The notes below the pieces were generated by a model. That model was not told the DNA's origin, did not search any database, and saw only the letters and a program-made list of their open reading frames with translations. Made by a program: the position numbers and the translations under genes. Positions 5,850 to 11,111 of a DNA stretch of 29,023 nucleotides are shown here, piece by piece; positions within the stretch are counted from its first letter, which is position 1; each line of letters starts with the position of its first letter. The stretch covers positions 1-29,023 of the forward strand of contig JAUVZE010000001.1 of NCBI GenBank assembly GCA_030602665.1, given 5' to 3'. The DNA comes from Dehalococcoidia bacterium. Its GTDB lineage: Bacteria; Chloroflexota; Dehalococcoidia; Dehalococcoidales; JAUVZE01.

Positions 5850-5927
5850 CTCTTTGCTGGATATGATGACAAAGGAGAACCTCAGAGAGGCGACTGAGAG
5901 GGAAAATCTGGAAATCCTGTCAATTCT

Positions 5928-6869
5928 CTAATCTCCTCGGGGCAGGTAACGACATCCTGTCCGGCCCTGAAAACGTTCAATAGGTTGAGGGACATAGACG
6001 AATTCTGGGCTGGGGCACTGATGCATGCACTTGCCGCAAAAGTCAATGAAGCCCATGGCGTAAAGCCCCTCGTCGGCGAACTTACGCTTGGCCGCAGCAC
6101 GCACGAAATCGGCCTGCGTTATTCTTTCCGGGGGCTCGAAGTGCGTCCGACTGCCTGACCCCTCAGTGAATCCGTCCAGGCACCAGCGGCACCGCATGTG
6201 GTCGAGCGCCCCATAACGGTAGGTGCGCCCGTCCATGGTGAACTCTTGGGCCTCATCCTTGCTGAGGGCGCCGATAGGACAGGTCTCCACACAGGCATAC
6301 CCGCAGAGTTCAGGCTTGCAGAGCTGTTCAGAGGCCATCAACTCTCCGGCCTCCAGGGGTGCCTCGGTAATGACCGAGATTAGGCGCTGCCGGGCGCCAT
6401 AAGCCGGGGTGAGGAACAGGTTGCTCCAGCCGAAGGTCCCCAGCCCAGCAGCGAGGGCCGCGTGCTTATGGGAGAAGTCGCCCAAGTAACGGTTCCATTG
6501 GTCAAAGTATTCATCGTACCGATACCGCGCCAGCATATACGAGGGCGCCATGGGCAGGCTCTGGTAGCCATAGGTTTCGAGGGCCTTAGCCACCTTCAGT
6601 GCTACCCGAGATAGTTCCCAGTTTAAAAGGGCGAAGCCAAACAACATGTAGGGCGTGGGCAGGCAGCCTTTCTCAGTGAAGGTCCCCCAAACCTCTCCGA
6701 TGGCCCGTGGATAGCCAATGCCAGCCACCACCACCGAACGAGCTGACGACATATAGTAGTTGGGGTGGGTCTGTTCCGGTCCGGTGTCAAAGCGCTTCAC
6801 CGGAGCGAAGCCCACCATATCTGCCCCAGCGTCCAGAGTGACAGACCGTATCTCTTGGGAGAGGTTCAC
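5928..6869 (-). CDS. QueG/reductive-dehalogenase superfamily double-[4Fe-4S] protein, probably cobamide-binding; not a true QueG
   Basis: 'GADMVGFAP' N-terminus, 'SHKHAALAAGLGTFGWSNLFLTPAYGARQRLISVITEAPL', and Cys motifs CKPELCGYACVETCP, CRWC and CGKCMHQCP. The QueG 'DYH' motif is absent. Confidence 0.75.
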   Translation of the reverse strand: MNLSQEIRSVTLDAGADMVGFAPVKRFDTGPEQTHPNYYMSSARSVVVAGIGYPRAIGEVWGTFTEKGCLPTPYMLFGFALLNWELSRVALKVAKALETYGYQSLPMAPSYMLARYRYDEYFDQWNRYLGDFSHKHAALAAGLGTFGWSNLFLTPAYGARQRLISVITEAPLEAGELMASEQLCKPELCGYACVETCPIGALSKDEAQEFTMDGRTYRYGALDHMRCRWCLDGFTEGSGSRTHFEPPERITQADFVRAAAKRKFADEGLYAMGFIDFCGKCMHQCPSPEFVYVPQPIERFQGRTGCRYLPRGD

Positions 6870-6884
6870 ACAACACCCCTTATA

Positions 6885-7784
6885 CTATGTTCCTGAGCGC
6901 TTTCCTTCCTTGGCTTTAATCTCTGCCATAGCCTCAAGGATTTTCTTGGCTCCAACATAAACAGGCGTATCCACCATCTTACCTTTGTATGACACTGCCG
7001 CTGACCCCTTGGCGATTCCTTCCTCTTCAAACACCTTAACAATTTCTCTAGCCCACTCCACCCTATCAGGTGCTGGCGAGTAAATCCTATGAGAAGGTTC
7101 AATCTGACTGGGATGAATCAGCATTCTTCCCTCAAAGCCTAACTGCCGACCGTAGGCTGTATCCTTCTCAAAGCCCTCAGTGTCTCTGAAGTCTACATAG
7201 GGGGCGTCAATAGCTATAATACCGGCAGCTCTAGCCGCACAGGCCATGCGTGCCCTAGCCCATTTTTGCTCCTCACCTATCGGCTGATTCAGTTTAATCC
7301 TCATATCCGTAGTATAATCCACCGCTCCATAAATCAGTGAATTAACTCTTGGGCTTGCCGTAGCTGATTGGTAAACATTCATCATGCCTTTAGCCGTTTC
7401 AATCAATAGCTGAATTTTTATGTTCCCTATCTCTAATCCCCTTTTCTGTTCCATTTCCTCTAGTTTCCAATCCAGGCGCTTTACGTGGTCTGGCCCCCCA
7501 CACTTAGCCAGACAAACACCGGCAAGTCCCTCATCAACCATCGCTTCACAATCAGCATTAGTCATACCCGTTTCCCAGTTGTTGATACGAGTATAAACAT
7601 CGGCGCCGGATGATGCTGCAAATTTGAGATTTTGATGACTCAATTCCCGAGCTTTTTGTTTCTCTGCCGGCGGCACGGAATCCTCGAGGTCCAGTGTAAT
7701 GATATCCGCCAGTATCTTCGGAATCTTGCTAATCAAGTCCTCCCTATTCCCTGGAACATAAAACACGGAACGCATAACTGGCAT
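6885..7784 (-). CDS. CitE/malyl-CoA-lyase family acyl-CoA C-C lyase
   Basis: 'RSVFYVPGN', 'LDLEDSVP', 'RIN', 'IET', 'GAVDY', 'IHPSQI' and a C-terminal 'MVDTP'; the usual catalytic and Mg-binding residues are present. Confidence 0.9.
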   Translation of the reverse strand: MPVMRSVFYVPGNREDLISKIPKILADIITLDLEDSVPPAEKQKARELSHQNLKFAASSGADVYTRINNWETGMTNADCEAMVDEGLAGVCLAKCGGPDHVKRLDWKLEEMEQKRGLEIGNIKIQLLIETAKGMMNVYQSATASPRVNSLIYGAVDYTTDMRIKLNQPIGEEQKWARARMACAARAAGIIAIDAPYVDFRDTEGFEKDTAYGRQLGFEGRMLIHPSQIEPSHRIYSPAPDRVEWAREIVKVFEEEGIAKGSAAVSYKGKMVDTPVYVGAKKILEAMAEIKAKEGKRSGT

Positions 7785-7796
7785 TTTTTTAACCTC

Positions 7797-8693
7797 CTAT
7801 AAATTTAATAGTCTTTTAAGCGTAGGGACGATTTCTTTAGGTGTTTCCACCGGATAAGCTCCGGCCTCACGGAGAGCCTTTACCTTGCCCGGCACCGACC
7901 CACGCCCTCGCTCTACTATCGCCGATGCGTGGGAGAAGCGCTGTCCTTCCGGGGCGGCAACACCAGCAATATAGATGACGAAAGGTTTAGTAAATTCACC
8001 CGCCTTGATAACCTCGGCAGCTTCTTCCTCCTGACTACCACCGATTTCACCAAAAACGGCTACCCCAAGGGTCTGCTCATCCTTCTCAAATAAGAGAAGA
8101 TAGTCAGCCATAGACATCCCAAGAATCGGCTCCGTGCCGGTGTGGATGGCAGTACTGACACCAAGCCCACCGTTCTTAAGAATCCAGGGCAGTGTCCCGG
8201 ACTCTCCACCACTACGCGATAAAACCCCAATAGGACCAGGTTGAAATAACATATTTGCCCACTCCACATTTCCGCCTAACCATCCAGCAACCGCCTTTCC
8301 CGGACTTAACAGGCCAAGCGACCCTGGCCCAATTATGGTGGCGCCTTCCTTTTTGGCTACCGAGACTATCTCCATGATATCATGAAGAGGTACCCGCTCC
8401 GCAGGAGAAACAATATACTTAATACCAGCATCAAGAGCCTCCAGTATGGCCATTTTCACCACTGTTCCCGGAATAAAGGTAACGCTCATATCAATAGAGC
8501 CCTGTGCCCTAATTGCCTCTTTCACCGTATTATAGACCGGAATCCCATTCACCTCCTGTCCACCCCGACCCGGAGAGGTACCGGCTACCACCTTGGTGCC
8601 GTAGTCCTTCATATACTTAGAGCGCAGGGAGCCTTCTCGTCCGGTTATACCCTGAACGATAACCATGGTCTTCTCATCAATAAGAATTGACAT
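7797..8693 (-). CDS. ADP-forming acid:CoA ligase alpha subunit (SucD/ACL-alpha family)
   Basis: CoA-binding 'VIVQGITGREG...KVVAGTSPG', 'SRSGG', 'GEIGGSQEEEAA' and the phospho-His motif 'RFSHASAI'. Confidence 0.88.
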   Translation of the reverse strand: MSILIDEKTMVIVQGITGREGSLRSKYMKDYGTKVVAGTSPGRGGQEVNGIPVYNTVKEAIRAQGSIDMSVTFIPGTVVKMAILEALDAGIKYIVSPAERVPLHDIMEIVSVAKKEGATIIGPGSLGLLSPGKAVAGWLGGNVEWANMLFQPGPIGVLSRSGGESGTLPWILKNGGLGVSTAIHTGTEPILGMSMADYLLLFEKDEQTLGVAVFGEIGGSQEEEAAEVIKAGEFTKPFVIYIAGVAAPEGQRFSHASAIVERGRGSVPGKVKALREAGAYPVETPKEIVPTLKRLLNL

Positions 8694-8702
8694 TTTTACC
8701 CC

Positions 8703-8990
8703 CTATCTCAGATTGCGTTTCCTTAGATACTCATCCAAGCCTTTAATAGGAACCTCAATGCGGATGGCATTATTGCCAAGCTGCCAGCAAGCATACTCAC
8801 AGGCCAAACATTCCGTGCCTCTCCGCTTCACCTCTTCTGGACTGAGATGGTCCACCGAGGGCTTCCCATCGCTTAACTGCAAAATCCCCCGGTCGTAAAC
8901 CTGACAGGCATCAACACAAGCCTTGCTACTACAATCCGGACATTTGGTTGTATCAATGATTACCTTGATGGTTCTTTCTTCAAATTCCAT
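8703..8990 (-). CDS. Small ferredoxin-like Fe-S protein (7 Cys)
   Basis: CPDCSSKACVDAC and GTECLACEYAC; has its own SD and sits tightly between the ligase subunits. Confidence 0.8.
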   Translation of the reverse strand: MEFEERTIKVIIDTTKCPDCSSKACVDACQVYDRGILQLSDGKPSVDHLSPEEVKRRGTECLACEYACWQLGNNAIRIEVPIKGLDEYLRKRNLR

Positions 8991-9005
8991 CAGCCGGCAA
9001 CCTCC

Positions 9006-10253
9006 TTATCTTGCCTTCTCCTTTCGGTATTGTTTTATCAGTTCCAGCATTCTCTGGCCAATGAAATCGCTGTCCTCAACACGCTCGCTCCCATAGATTT
9101 CAATACGACCAGGCAGACCCTTCAGCCCCTCTCTTAATATTCGCAAGGACTCTTTCTCCTTATTCCCCGCCAAGAGAAGGACACACGGAAATCCCAACCT
9201 CTTGGGGAGTTCTTCTCTCAGCACCTTGACTAAGGCATGAGCATGATGCCACTGCTCCTGATTAGCTATCATGAAGCCGGCCAATAGGTAACCTTCAATA
9301 TTGGGCTGAGATAGAACTACTTTGGCCACCCGGTAAACCTTGGAAGCCACCGGATTGCCACTCGTGTCAGCAAAATTCGCCGGCTTGAGACCCACCCGGC
9401 TAAGTGCGTCCATCCCTATCATGGCTGCCCCACCACCGATGGCATGGAAGCCAATGAATCCGGTGCTGGTTTCATCCAATGTCATCTTCATGACAAACCC
9501 CGAACCACGAAGGTCAGTTTCCTCAATCCCCCAGCCAACCCTGTCAAAATCAGTCGCTTCCCAGGGAAATTCTCTAGGGATAGTGATTCCCATCTCAGGG
9601 TGACGGAAGGTTGAGTTATCATCAATACCCATGCGGCAGTCTCCAGCAATCACTCTACCCTCTTGAGTCAATATTAGAGGATTGATTTCCAGAATATTGC
9701 AATCACGCTTCTTAAAGACTTCCACAACCTTAGAAATCACCCCCGCCACTTCCCCCAGCAATTGATTTGGAATACCAGCACTGCTAGCCAGGTTCAAAGC
9801 ATCATAGATAGGAAACCCTTTAAGATAATCAATCTCAGCCCGGAAGATTTTGTCCTCAGGAACTTCTTCTATATCCATCCCCCCTTGAGTGCTAAACATA
9901 ACTACCGGAGCCTGGCTCTTCCACGAGGAATCAGGAATTACACCGACATAATATTCCTTCTCAATGTTCAATTTCTCCTCTACCAACACCTGCCGGACGG
10001 GAAATCCTTTTACTTCCATGCCTAAAATAACGCTGGCCGCCTTCTCTGCTTCCTCGGGCGTGTCAGCAAACTTTATCGCACCGGCTTTCCCACGTCCTCC
10101 AACCCAAACCTGTGCCTTTACCACGACAGGTTTCCCTACTCTAGCAGTAACTTCATATGCCTCTTTGGCAGTTGAGGCAACCTCCCCTGTTGGAATGGCA
10201 ATGCCAACATCTTTGAGAAACTCCTTTCCTTGGTATTCAAATAGCCTAGCCAT
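9006..10253 (-). CDS. ADP-forming acid:CoA ligase beta subunit (ATP-grasp; SucC/ACL-beta family, ACL-like substrate domain)
   Basis: 'RLFEYQGKE', 'VVVKAQVWVGGRGKAGAIK', 'LEINPL' and 'IGGGAAM', 'NFADTSGNP', 'MIANQE'. Confidence 0.88.
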   Translation of the reverse strand: MARLFEYQGKEFLKDVGIAIPTGEVASTAKEAYEVTARVGKPVVVKAQVWVGGRGKAGAIKFADTPEEAEKAASVILGMEVKGFPVRQVLVEEKLNIEKEYYVGVIPDSSWKSQAPVVMFSTQGGMDIEEVPEDKIFRAEIDYLKGFPIYDALNLASSAGIPNQLLGEVAGVISKVVEVFKKRDCNILEINPLILTQEGRVIAGDCRMGIDDNSTFRHPEMGITIPREFPWEATDFDRVGWGIEETDLRGSGFVMKMTLDETSTGFIGFHAIGGGAAMIGMDALSRVGLKPANFADTSGNPVASKVYRVAKVVLSQPNIEGYLLAGFMIANQEQWHHAHALVKVLREELPKRLGFPCVLLLAGNKEKESLRILREGLKGLPGRIEIYGSERVEDSDFIGQRMLELIKQYRKEKAR

Positions 10254-10285
10254 CTACACCTCCTTTTGTCGCTACCAGAAATCCT

Positions 10286-11038
10286 TCATTCACCCCTGTA
10301 TCCCATCGCCCGAGAAATCTCCAATCCACAACGTTTAACTAGTAGCTTTAATTCTTCCACTCTCTTATCGCTTAGACGGGCAGAAGGCCCGGAAACACTG
10401 ATAGCGGCCACTACATTTCCATCGCAATCTTTTACCGCTGAGGCCACACACCTTACACCTACTTCCATCTCTTCGTCATCCTCGGCAATACCTTCTCGCC
10501 TAACAATTAGAAGTGTTTTCTTCAATTGGCTAAAATCCGTTATAGTATTTTTCGTATAATAAGGCAGGGCTTTGCTATTCAAGAATCTTTCCACTTCTGC
10601 CTCTCCCATATGAGCCAAAAAAACCTTCCCCACTCCGGTGCAATGTAGTGGTACTCTATTTCCCACCGCGGTAAATATTCGCAAGTTGTAATTAGATTCA
10701 ATTTGCTCAATATAAACGGCCTCGTTGGCATCCAAAATTGCCAGATTGACAGATTCATCAACCACCTTATTTAGCTCCTGCAAAAAAGGAAGCGCCACAT
10801 CTCTAATTTTCATCCTCCGCTTAACAATACTGCCGAATTCTAGCAATCTTGGGCCAAGGTAATACTTTCCTCTCTTCTGCCGTTGGTTAAGGTAACCTCT
10901 CTTAACTAGCAACGAGGTAATCCGATGAGCAGTGCTGATATTTAACCGGCTTAAATTGGCCAGCGCTGCTAATCCCATTTCGCCTTCTTGCTTCAAGAAG
11001 CTCTCTAAAATATCAAGTGCTTTTTCAACTGTCTGCAT
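10286..11038 (-). CDS. IclR-family transcriptional regulator
   Basis: 'QTVEKALDIL', HTH 'NISTAHRI', 'VDESVNLAIL', 'GNRVPLHCTGVGKVFLA', 'DDEEMEVGVRCVAS...AAISVSGP'. Confidence 0.95.
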   Translation of the reverse strand: MQTVEKALDILESFLKQEGEMGLAALANLSRLNISTAHRITSLLVKRGYLNQRQKRGKYYLGPRLLEFGSIVKRRMKIRDVALPFLQELNKVVDESVNLAILDANEAVYIEQIESNYNLRIFTAVGNRVPLHCTGVGKVFLAHMGEAEVERFLNSKALPYYTKNTITDFSQLKKTLLIVRREGIAEDDEEMEVGVRCVASAVKDCDGNVVAAISVSGPSARLSDKRVEELKLLVKRCGLEISRAMGYRGE

Positions 11039-11048
11039 GATTCTTGAC

Positions 11049-11063
11049 TTTTATATAATGAAA
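11049..11063. promoter_or_regulatory. Candidate IclR operator TTTTAT-ATA-ATGAAA
   Basis: 15-bp palindrome, one mismatch from TTTCAT-N3-ATGAAA, located between the predicted transcription start and the iclR ATG. Confidence 0.5.
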
Positions 11064-11082
11064 ATGACTTTTATTTTTGAAC

Positions 11083-11111
11083 ATCTTACCAAAGAATTCT
11101 TATTTTGTCAA
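11083..11111 (-). promoter_or_regulatory. Sigma70-type promoter of the iclR-ligase-lyase operon
   Basis: TTGACA (11111-11106), 17 bp, TAAGAT (11088-11083). Confidence 0.7.

Follow-up and report, generated by a model that had tools for sequence, protein, structure and literature searches.

A conserved ligase, ferredoxin and lyase gene cassette in a Dehalococcoidia contig as a likely candidate for two central steps of the anaerobic malyl-CoA pathway

Glycolate ranks among the main exudates of algae, glyoxylate occupies a central place in C2 metabolism, and the ATP-gaining oxidation of both by strict anaerobes has been known biochemically since the 1990s. Ahead of malic enzyme, the anaerobic malyl-CoA pathway requires two activities, malyl-CoA lyase and ATP-forming malyl-CoA synthetase; Friedrich and Schink reportedly defined it by physiology and enzymology in Syntrophobotulus glycolicus, and Sakai et al. 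(2008, Appl Environ Microbiol 74:1447) are reported to have done so in Moorella sp. HUC22-1 (both as cited in PMC8092247 and PMC6313629). Desulfofustis glycolicus, S. glycolicus, Moorella sp. HUC22-1 and M. thermoacetica are anaerobic glycolate users that employ this pathway (PMC6313629), with S. glycolicus metabolising glyoxylate and Moorella HUC22-1 fermenting it via malyl-CoA (PMC8092247). A gene-level assignment for the malyl-CoA lyase or the ATP-forming malyl-CoA synthetase of the anaerobic pathway was not found in the literature searched or in public annotation. The present analysis concerns a 29,023-nucleotide stretch of a Dehalococcoidia genome (assembly GCA_030602665.1, contig JAUVZE010000001.1, positions 1 to 29,023; the window), in which a gene for an IclR-type regulator is followed by genes for a ligase beta subunit, a ferredoxin-like small protein, a ligase alpha subunit, a CitE-superfamily lyase and a QueG/RdhA-like protein. 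The four genes from beta to lyase, termed the cassette, could supply the first two enzymes of the pathway, and it is likely that they encode its two central steps, with malate and malyl-CoA as substrates and the ligase working in the ATP-forming direction.

Several characterised systems resemble the cassette in part. In the serine cycle of methylotrophs, the ligase MtkAB and the malyl-CoA lyase Mcl carry out the same pair of reactions as proposed here, and MtkAB belongs to the same superfamily, likewise being built of an alpha and a beta subunit and carrying a phosphohistidine. The cassette family differs from this system in forming a separate clade, in its motifs of the ATP-citrate lyase (ACL) and citryl-CoA synthetase (CCS) type, in a third gene encoding a ferredoxin, in a short CitE-type lyase without the Mcl insertion, and probably also in its physiological direction, which would be the opposite, ATP-forming one. 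A similar two-step logic of ligase and lyase is found in CcsAB and Ccl of Hydrogenobacter thermophilus (PDB 6HXQ); CcsAB and ACL have in common with the cassette a GGG[AS] loop, a GNP..K.Y..K motif and an inserted segment preceding that motif, and CcsA is the second-best PDB match of the beta subunit (155 bits). In contrast to CcsAB and ACL, the alpha subunit and the ATP-grasp domain of the cassette are nearer to succinyl-CoA synthetase (SCS) of Aeropyrum and Thermus, and the lyase is a CitE/TIM-barrel protein; unlike the cassette, CCS and ACL are without a ferredoxin component. The best overall match is SucCD (Thermus aquaticus 3UFX, beta 221 bits; Aeropyrum pernix 2YV2, alpha 278 bits), which has the same domain architecture, whereas the cassette proteins fall below the equivalog cut-offs, have the C-terminal motifs replaced, form a separate clade and coexist with canonical SucCD.

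Two genome scans gave 125 distinct loci, in which genes were counted by BLAST against all open reading frames (ORFs); many loci are cut by contig ends. Beta homologues with 55-95% identity were abundant, and the small gene was present in 122 of the 125 loci, the alpha gene in 121 and the lyase gene in 108. Wherever all four genes were present, they stood on one strand in the order beta, small, alpha and lyase (107/107 loci; median gaps of 9, 23 and 54 bp), an arrangement far from chance. The carriers belong to at least five phyla, comprising Chloroflexota (Dehalococcoidia and others), Bacillota (Moorella/Neomoorella, Desulfosporosinus, Desulfitobacterium, Dehalobacter and Candidatus Dichloromethanomonas), many Thermodesulfobacteriota including D. 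glycolicus DSM 9705 and Bilophila wadsworthia, Actinomycetota, Pseudomonadota (a Thiobacillaceae metagenome-assembled genome, MAG) and MAGs labelled Myxococcota. Within the class Dehalococcoidia, the cassette was rare (2 of 200 other genomes sampled) and is an accessory trait.

Gene context was counted in 72 loci flanked by 5 kb or more on either side; these loci are interrelated, so the numbers are not independent events. Clustering of the surrounding ORFs revealed as recurrent neighbours flavin adenine dinucleotide (FAD) oxidases of the GlcD/GlcE type, an iron-sulfur (Fe-S)/CCG protein of the GlcF type, malic enzyme, GntR/FCD or IclR regulators and TRAP transporters. Their identities were assigned with Pfam and NCBIfam, where the glcD model TIGR00387 gave 496-598 bits against a cut-off of 568 and a fused GlcD-GlcE scored above it. 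GlcF-like genes were found in 43 of the well-flanked loci, GlcD/E-like genes in 41 and malic enzyme genes in 37, and at least one of these glycolate dehydrogenase or malic enzyme genes accompanied the cassette in 62, across several phyla. With beta, small, alpha, lyase and malic enzyme abbreviated as B, s, A, L and ME, an operon for the whole route (B-s-A-L-ME-GlcD-GlcF) was observed in Bilophila (locus L100) and in an actinobacterial MAG (L021), while D. glycolicus DSM 9705 has B-s-A-L...GlcDE-GlcF and Moorella thermoacetica has B-s-A-L-ME. A genome in the family of Ca. Dichloromethanomonas elyunquensis strain RM, which we infer to be that of S. glycolicus, has GNAT-B-s-A-L-ME.

The cassette is present in the described users of the pathway, namely Moorella spp., D. 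glycolicus and, with the identity just mentioned, S. glycolicus. For strain RM, a published proteome compares cells grown on dichloroacetate (DCA), which is dehalogenated to glyoxylate, with cells grown on dichloromethane (DCM) (PMC8092247, Table S2). The DCA/DCM ratios in that table were 13.4-fold for PROKKA_18948 (SCS beta), 11.7-fold for PROKKA_18949 (a hypothetical protein corresponding to the small protein, with 13 peptides, 77% coverage and a log2 intensity of ~23), 8.4-fold for PROKKA_18950 (SCS alpha), 11.3-fold for PROKKA_18951 (citrate lyase beta) and 6.7-fold for PROKKA_18952 (malic enzyme), all flagged p < 0.05, and the cassette proteins were among the most intense signals (PMC8092247, Table S2). 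These tags can be assigned to the cassette with confidence because the RM genome has a single SucC-like gene, that of the cassette (locus L048). An original prediction, made from the letters and translations of the window, had left the hydroxy acid unnamed; the context of the 125 loci, the carriers and this proteome point to malate and malyl-CoA, and a preference for malate would, on the prediction's own terms, speak against the novel substrate it proposed.

In the proposed route, the CitE-type lyase would condense glyoxylate and acetyl-CoA to (S)-malyl-CoA, after which the ADP-forming ligase, composed of beta, ferredoxin and alpha, would convert malyl-CoA, ADP and Pi to malate, CoA and ATP by substrate-level phosphorylation. 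Malic enzyme, encoded elsewhere, would turn malate into pyruvate and CO2, and pyruvate:ferredoxin oxidoreductase, also encoded elsewhere, would regenerate acetyl-CoA from pyruvate with release of CO2, giving a net conversion of glyoxylate to 2 CO2 with a gain of one ATP. The usual direction would thus probably be condensation followed by ATP formation, and not the activation followed by cleavage that had been predicted. In the genome of the window, another contig has canonical sucC-sucD and, ~1.7 kb downstream, the malic enzyme gene (C19:7640-12519), the product of which is 45% identical to the cassette-linked malic enzymes; the likely downstream enzyme of the malyl-CoA module is therefore encoded beside an ordinary SCS.

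A number of further genes and arrangements were noted around the cassette in other genomes. A formyltransferase-like gene (~304 aa, Formyl_trans_N and Formyl_trans_C; best model fmt, below cut-off) was linked to the cassette in 23 of the 72 well-flanked loci, mostly directly after the lyase gene in Thermodesulfobacteriota (L023, L028, L032, L066, L067, L139 and others), and a 50% identical copy is found in the window's own genome (contig C76:7936-8847). Operons of the Desulfocapsaceae type have genes for a YkoF/Thiamine_BP-like protein (95 aa) and an S-adenosylmethionine (SAM)-methyltransferase between the lyase and the fused GlcD-GlcE (17 and 15 of the 72 loci, respectively; L139, L046, L055, L058, L070 and others). 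A Dehalococcoidia-class locus (L172, G695:C2) has a divergent cassette (beta 51%, small 40% and lyase 34% identity) followed at once by a second SucCD-like pair, and another Chloroflexota locus (L013/L171) has beta, small and alpha genes, with no lyase detectable within the contig. In the gut pathobiont B. wadsworthia ATCC 49260, which has the complete operon given above, the beta protein is 82% identical to Peptococcaceae versions and falls among Bacillota in both trees described below, which suggests lateral transfer.

The ligase is a member of the ADP-forming acyl-CoA synthetase superfamily. The beta subunit has an ATP-grasp_2 domain (PF08442) and a weak match to Citrate_bind (PF16114; 29.9 bits, cut-off 26.8), the alpha subunit has CoA_binding (PF02629) and Ligase_CoA (PF00549) domains, and the phosphohistidine is retained in the alpha motif RFSHAS, the His of which aligns with that of GHAG; the alpha family also has SRSGG[QE]SGT. 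Beta is proposed to be the subunit that binds the nucleotide and the acid. Scores against the equivalog models were low, with 257.1 bits for beta against the SucC model NF001913 (cut-off 370), 269.3 bits for alpha against the SucD model NF004230 (cut-off 336), and 183.7 (hmmscan) or 180.3 bits (genome search) for beta against the MtkA model NF010647 (cut-off 604). Fetched SucC and MtkA sequences contain NGAGLAM, ANFLDVGGGA, F[GA]GIxRCD and VRLxGTN, fetched SucD and MtkB sequences SRSGTL and GHAG, and ACL-beta-type sequences AGGGASV, NYGEYSGxP..TYxYAKT, GGIANFTDV and VRRGGPNY, so that the SCS and ACL motifs given for comparison in the original prediction hold against real sequences. All motifs quoted there from the window itself (IGGGAA, NFADTSGNP..VYRVAK, MIANQE, LLAGNK, SRSGG and FSHAS) likewise occur in the translations. 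At the SucCD motif positions, the window reads IGGGAAM, ANFADTSGNP, GFMIANQEQWHH, SRSGGESGT and FSHAS instead, and at the ACL citrate-site positions GGIANFT and VRRGGPN it reads GFMIANQE and LLLAGNK, which bears out the predicted replacement of ANFT by ANQE and of RRGGPN by LLAGNK. In ACL, the ANFT and RRGGPN residues bind citrate.

The GGG[AS] and GxP..Y..AK motifs of beta align with those of ACL-beta and CcsA (6hxq_B), and a family signature, ANQEQWHH, is present in 122 of the 125 beta sequences. Among solved structures, E. coli SucC (145 bits) and Chlorobium ACL-beta (101 bits) follow Thermus SCS-beta and CcsA as matches of beta, and the closest match of alpha is the archaeal SCS-alpha. In the printed alignments, the ATP-grasp half of beta is SCS-like, and the C-terminal half aligns best with CcsA, including GLKPANF.D..GNP.A.K.Y...K. 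The C-terminal domain of beta is thus ACL/CCS-like, without the citrate-site motifs of ACL.

Maximum-likelihood trees were built with 8 MtkAB pairs above the NCBIfam cut-off, 8 canonical SucCD pairs including that of the window's genome (contig C19) and 9 usable ACL-beta-type genes with strong Citrate_bind matches, 8 of which had an alpha gene. In the beta tree, the ACL-beta row L157, a wrongly chosen ORF on a branch of length 6.7, was disregarded; kinship to CCS was judged outside the trees, from phmmer scores and one printed alignment. The cassette family was monophyletic, with support of 98/97 for beta and 100/98 for alpha. MtkA was nested in proteobacterial SucC and MtkB grouped with SucD, and the cassette family lay outside both in both trees. 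The beta family joined ACL-beta with support of 96/93, on a long branch that calls for care in reading this grouping. Canonical SucCD is encoded separately from the cassette in the window's genome (contig C19) as well as in D. glycolicus, Bilophila and others. The ligase is not an orthologue of SucCD or MtkAB, and the predicted ACL/citryl-CoA-synthetase-like character holds up, given the sub-cut-off scores, the clade of its own and the C-terminal motifs. As a malate thiokinase, it would have an origin separate from that of MtkAB, in a lineage close to ACL and citryl-CoA synthetase.

The lyase contains an HpcH_HpaI domain (PF03328, 133 bits), and the partner of the ligase is of the HpcH/CitE type, in place of a citrate-synthase-like lyase, as had been predicted. 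It scored 204.8 bits against the CitE model TIGR01588 (cut-off 443.4) and also matched the RipC and haloarchaeal malyl-CoA lyase models, in each case below the cut-off. Residues D31, E33, D34, R66, E129, D156 and D272 align with the catalytic residues listed in PMC3832036; E129 and D156 correspond to the Mg ligands, and the lid residue D272 is the Asp of the lyases and synthases, where the malyl-CoA thioesterase group has Glu. A 30-40-residue insertion after beta-strand 6, a feature of the Mcl-type malyl-CoA lyases of the Rhodobacter and Chloroflexus types (PMC3832036), is absent in alignments to 4l9y_A and 5ugr_A. The protein was about equally distant (128-111 bits) from the Deinococcus CitE-like protein, CLYBL, and the Mcl of Methylobacterium and Rhodobacter. 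It is predicted to be a competent C-C lyase or synthase of the CitE superfamily, and (S)-malyl-CoA lyase is the proposed function that fits the context.

The small protein between the two ligase subunits has the Cys pattern C-x2-C-x4-C-x3-C ... G-x2-C-x2-C-x3-C, which retains 7 of the 8 canonical Cys of a ferredoxin. The seven Cys were invariant in 120 distinct sequences, and so was the Gly standing where the second motif would have its first Cys. No Pfam or NCBIfam model matched the protein, the Fer4 models included. An AlphaFold2 model based on 48 sequences (predicted local distance difference test score, pLDDT, 87.8) was best matched in Foldseek by 7Fe ferredoxins, namely Desulfovibrio africanus ferredoxin III (E 4.5e-3) and D. 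vulgaris Miyazaki ferredoxin I (E 8.6e-3), with a TM-score by hit of ~0.69, and then by the ferredoxin-like domains of Rpo3, RnfB and ABCE1. The 7Fe ferredoxins have a similar fold and the same seven-Cys pattern, the first Cys of the second motif being missing in both; the small protein differs from them in a ~25-residue insert and a C-terminal helix, and in that its gene is confined to a ligase operon and the protein is fused to beta in some lineages. Such natural fusions were found by an exhaustive phmmer search, which gave 111 representatives (50%-identity clusters), 7 of them proteins of 471-541 aa with the ferredoxin domain C-terminal to a complete beta (P0243, P0275, P0280, P0282, P0289, P0295 and P0318). 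One of these is 50% identical to the window beta across its full length and keeps ANQEQW. The fused ferredoxin domains have all eight Cys, whereas in the clade of the window the free-standing proteins carry Gly at the start of the second motif, which suggests a switch from a 2x[4Fe-4S] form in the fusions to a 7Fe form in the free-standing proteins. The modelled protein probably binds one [4Fe-4S] and one [3Fe-4S] cluster. Since its placement between beta and alpha is invariant, natural fusions occur and its abundance in strain RM is high and co-regulated, the most economical reading is that the ferredoxin is probably a physical third subunit of the ligase. Its role could be structural, redox-sensing or in electron transfer; the structural Fe-S domains of ABCE1 and archaeal Rpo3 are a precedent for Fe-S clusters in enzymes without redox chemistry.

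A broader proposal can be advanced tentatively, as one that is somewhat more apt to fail than to hold. The ligase could be a three-subunit Fe-S malate thiokinase of the SCS/ACL superfamily, derived independently of MtkAB from the CCS/ACL stem, in which an obligatory ferredoxin would couple the ATP-yielding cleavage of the thioester to the cellular redox state or exchange electrons with neighbouring dehydrogenases; with the lyase, the ligase would account for the anaerobic malyl-CoA pathway at the gene level, which has been missing, and the ferredoxin would be the first Fe-S subunit known in this superfamily. We rate the chemistry as that of a known pathway, the ligase lineage as uncharacterised and the Fe-S component as unprecedented. 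What the window itself contributes is its membership of the family, the apparent IclR control and the apparent passenger gene described below. The family is publicly annotated as "succinyl-CoA synthetase", "ATP-grasp domain protein", "acetate-CoA ligase family", "hypothetical protein", "4Fe-4S ferredoxin-type" and "CoA ester lyase". If the cassette does encode the lyase and synthetase of the pathway, genes now labelled "succinyl-CoA synthetase / hypothetical / citrate lyase beta" could be re-annotated in hundreds of genomes from sulfate reducers, acetogens, organohalide respirers, Bilophila and Dehalococcoidia of sediments. Malate thiokinase would then have a second, independent origin near the root of ATP-citrate lyase, and an enzyme superfamily believed to work without an iron-sulfur subunit would gain one. 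A malyl-CoA synthetase that forms ATP is also of practical interest for synthetic carbon-conserving pathways that now rely on MtkAB.

Several points weigh against the assignment to the malyl-CoA pathway. The choice of substrate draws on gene context, carriers and one proteome, and the ACL-like substrate pocket, including the invariant ANQEQWHH, is without a structural explanation. While the cassette usually adjoins genes for glycolate dehydrogenase and malic enzyme, the window is without such neighbours: no GlcDEF gene adjoins the cassette there or in the closest Dehalococcoidales loci, malic enzyme is next door (directly upstream) in just two of the latter, and no GlcD/E gene was found in the window's MAG, which is 56% complete. 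GlcD/GlcF-like proteins can, moreover, also be D-lactate dehydrogenases. The authors of the RM study favoured a glycerate route, in which glyoxylate carboligase was 272-fold induced, and did not discuss the cassette (PMC8092247); by their account RM is without canonical malyl-CoA lyase genes (PMC8092247). S. glycolicus is implied in the same paper to have a canonical malyl-CoA lyase too (PMC8092247), and therefore the cassette need not be the sole route. In the Dehalococcoidia branch, the enzymes may also run in reverse, activating malate and cleaving it to acetyl-CoA and glyoxylate.

The absence of GlcDEF beside the window and its nearest relatives could also mean that, at least in the Dehalococcoidia branch, the same enzyme logic serves another 2-hydroxy-dicarboxylate, such as citramalate via citramalyl-CoA (pyruvate and acetyl-CoA) or beta-methylmalate (glyoxylate and propionyl-CoA), possibly in the activate-then-cleave direction. 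Lyases of the CitE superfamily are promiscuous, CLYBL (a citramalyl-CoA lyase, 123 bits) and RipC score like the malyl-CoA lyases, and the substrate pocket is unlike that of any characterised ligase. However, identity to the proteins of glycolate-linked loci is 57-63% for the Dehalococcoidia beta and 62-67% for alpha and lyase, the pocket motif is the same in 122/125 betas, malic enzyme stands upstream in the two Dehalococcoidia loci, and genes for a hydratase, mutase or CoA-transferase of the kind expected in itaconate, citramalate or methylmalyl routes do not recur in the vicinity, all of which makes another dicarboxylate unlikely. Citrate is a still less probable substrate. A two-component ATP-citrate lyase or ATP-forming citrate synthase, in which a CCS-like ligase is paired with a CitE-type citryl-CoA lyase replacing the Ccl domain, would accord with the GGG[AS] and GNP..Y..AK motifs in common with CCS/ACL, the grouping with ACL-beta on its long branch (96/93), the weak Citrate_bind match and the role of CitE as the citryl-thioester lyase of citrate lyase. 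It is improbable because the ANFT/RRGGPN positions read ANQE/LLAGNK, the lyase reaches 205 bits with the CitE model (cut-off 443), growth on a glyoxylate-yielding substrate induces the cassette, and the genes next to it encode glycolate dehydrogenase and malic enzyme rather than aconitase, isocitrate dehydrogenase or citrate transport.

That the ligase is a plain paralogous SCS, with the lyase and ferredoxin as unrelated neighbours, is the impression given by the top PDB and NCBIfam scores, which belong to SCS subunits, and by the public label of succinyl-CoA synthetase; Moorella and strain RM, moreover, have no other SucC-like gene. All SCS cut-offs were missed, however, the SucC/MtkA C-terminal motifs are replaced, both subunits lie outside the SucCD clade, the linkage to lyase and ferredoxin is near-invariant, and canonical SucCD coexists in the window's genome, D. 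glycolicus, Bilophila and others. Plain SCS was rejected on the cut-offs, trees and motifs, and is very improbable. Scarcely credible, finally, is the pathway suggested in the original prediction, in which a less anionic or amine-bearing, carnitine-like acid would be processed with a reductive Fe-S/cobamide step by the QueG/RdhA-like enzyme. The gene for that enzyme does follow the lyase closely, and an MttB-family gene lies elsewhere in the window (per sequence-only annotation), but no supporting neighbour recurs, and a carnitine or amine substrate was rejected on this ground. The attached reductive step fell away too, the QueG/RdhA-like gene being rejected as a pathway member on its presence in 1/125 loci, its other contexts and its composition.

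The locus consists of six ORFs, all on the minus strand and spanning 5928-11038, in the predicted order from iclR to the queG-like gene (Table 1). The gaps, from iclR onward, are 32, 15, 9, 12 and 15 bp, within the 9-32 bp given by the original prediction, which also had the positions right. A single transcription unit for the six genes is plausible, because a promoter-like site precedes iclR and a terminator-like hairpin follows the last gene, both as consensus matches; the hairpin is the likely end of the unit. The promoter-like site is the sole strong consensus match ahead of the operon, in a region where the number of such sites was not above that in shuffles.

Table 1. Predicted features of the IclR-linked unit, with positions in the 29,023-nucleotide window
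Feature	Position	Strand	Remarks	Basis
Promoter-like site	11083..11111	-	TTGACA, 17 nt, TAAGAT, with TG; ~45 nt 5' of iclR	Consensus scan
iclR, IclR-family transcriptional regulator, 250 aa	10286..11038	-	HTH_IclR and IclR_C	Pfam
Ligase beta, 415 aa	9006..10253	-	ATP-grasp and ACL/CCS-like C-terminal domain	Pfam, NCBIfam, motifs, tree
Ferredoxin-like small protein, 95 aa	8703..8990	-	7 Cys	Cys pattern, AlphaFold2 fold, conserved placement
Ligase alpha, 298 aa	7797..8693	-	CoA-binding and CoA-ligase domains	Pfam, motifs, tree
CitE-superfamily acyl-CoA lyase, 299 aa	6885..7784	-		HpcH_HpaI domain, catalytic residues
RdhA/QueG-superfamily Fe-S protein, 313 aa	5928..6869	-		Family profile vs PDB
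Terminator-like hairpin and T-rich tail	5880..5899	-	Directly 3' of last gene	Consensus scan

BhcR is the regulator of the beta-hydroxyaspartate cycle (NCBIfam model NF045644). The IclR protein, with Pfam scores of 48.5 bits for HTH_IclR and 177 bits for IclR_C, has BhcR as its best curated model, at 202.9 bits and thus below the cut-off of 350. Of the 72 well-flanked loci, 14 have an IclR gene ahead of the cassette, the Chloroflexota loci L006 and L015 among them. The unit in the window would be under IclR-type control, and its effector is probably glyoxylate or a related acid, since BhcR, the best model although below cut-off, responds to glyoxylate. A 10-nt direct repeat, ATAAAAGTCA, occurs in two copies 20 nt apart at 11045-11074 on the minus strand, between the promoter-like -10 hexamer and the iclR start codon, and may be an operator for the IclR regulator.

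The QueG/RdhA-like protein had no Pfam match, and no twin-arginine translocation (Tat) signal was found in its family. The superfamily label of the original prediction was upheld by the family profile, which matched PceA (1.1e-16) and QueG (3.5e-16) in the PDB over the cobamide-binding core and the first Fe-S motif, and the protein is probably an Fe-S and cobamide protein of the RdhA/QueG superfamily. Against TIGR02486 it scored 36 bits (cut-off 160), and it is therefore neither a typical RdhA nor a typical QueG. The gene starts 15 bp after the lyase gene, has its own Shine-Dalgarno sequence and has no terminator before it, and it is probably co-transcribed with the cassette. Among the 125 loci it adjoins the cassette in the window alone, and homologues with 60-96% identity stand beside an M20 peptidase, a module of FlpD, polyferredoxin and a nicotinamide adenine dinucleotide (NAD)-binding protein, or DUF1961, those with 70-96% identity never beside the ligase. 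Its GC content is 59.3% and that at third codon positions (GC3) 70%, against 48.4% GC for the genome and 41-51% GC3 for neighbouring genes, those of the cassette lying at ~46-51%. Because of this single linkage, the unrelated contexts elsewhere and the foreign composition, the gene is regarded as a recent, horizontally acquired passenger; it is not a conserved part of the unit. The QueG/RdhA-like family is compact, with ~90 clusters. In two metagenome contigs (L165 and L169), its gene lies directly upstream of genes for an FlpD(MvhD)-like protein, two polyferredoxin-like proteins and an NAD-binding/DHODB Fe-S protein, which suggests an electron-input module of its own and a cytoplasmic reductive reaction for this family.

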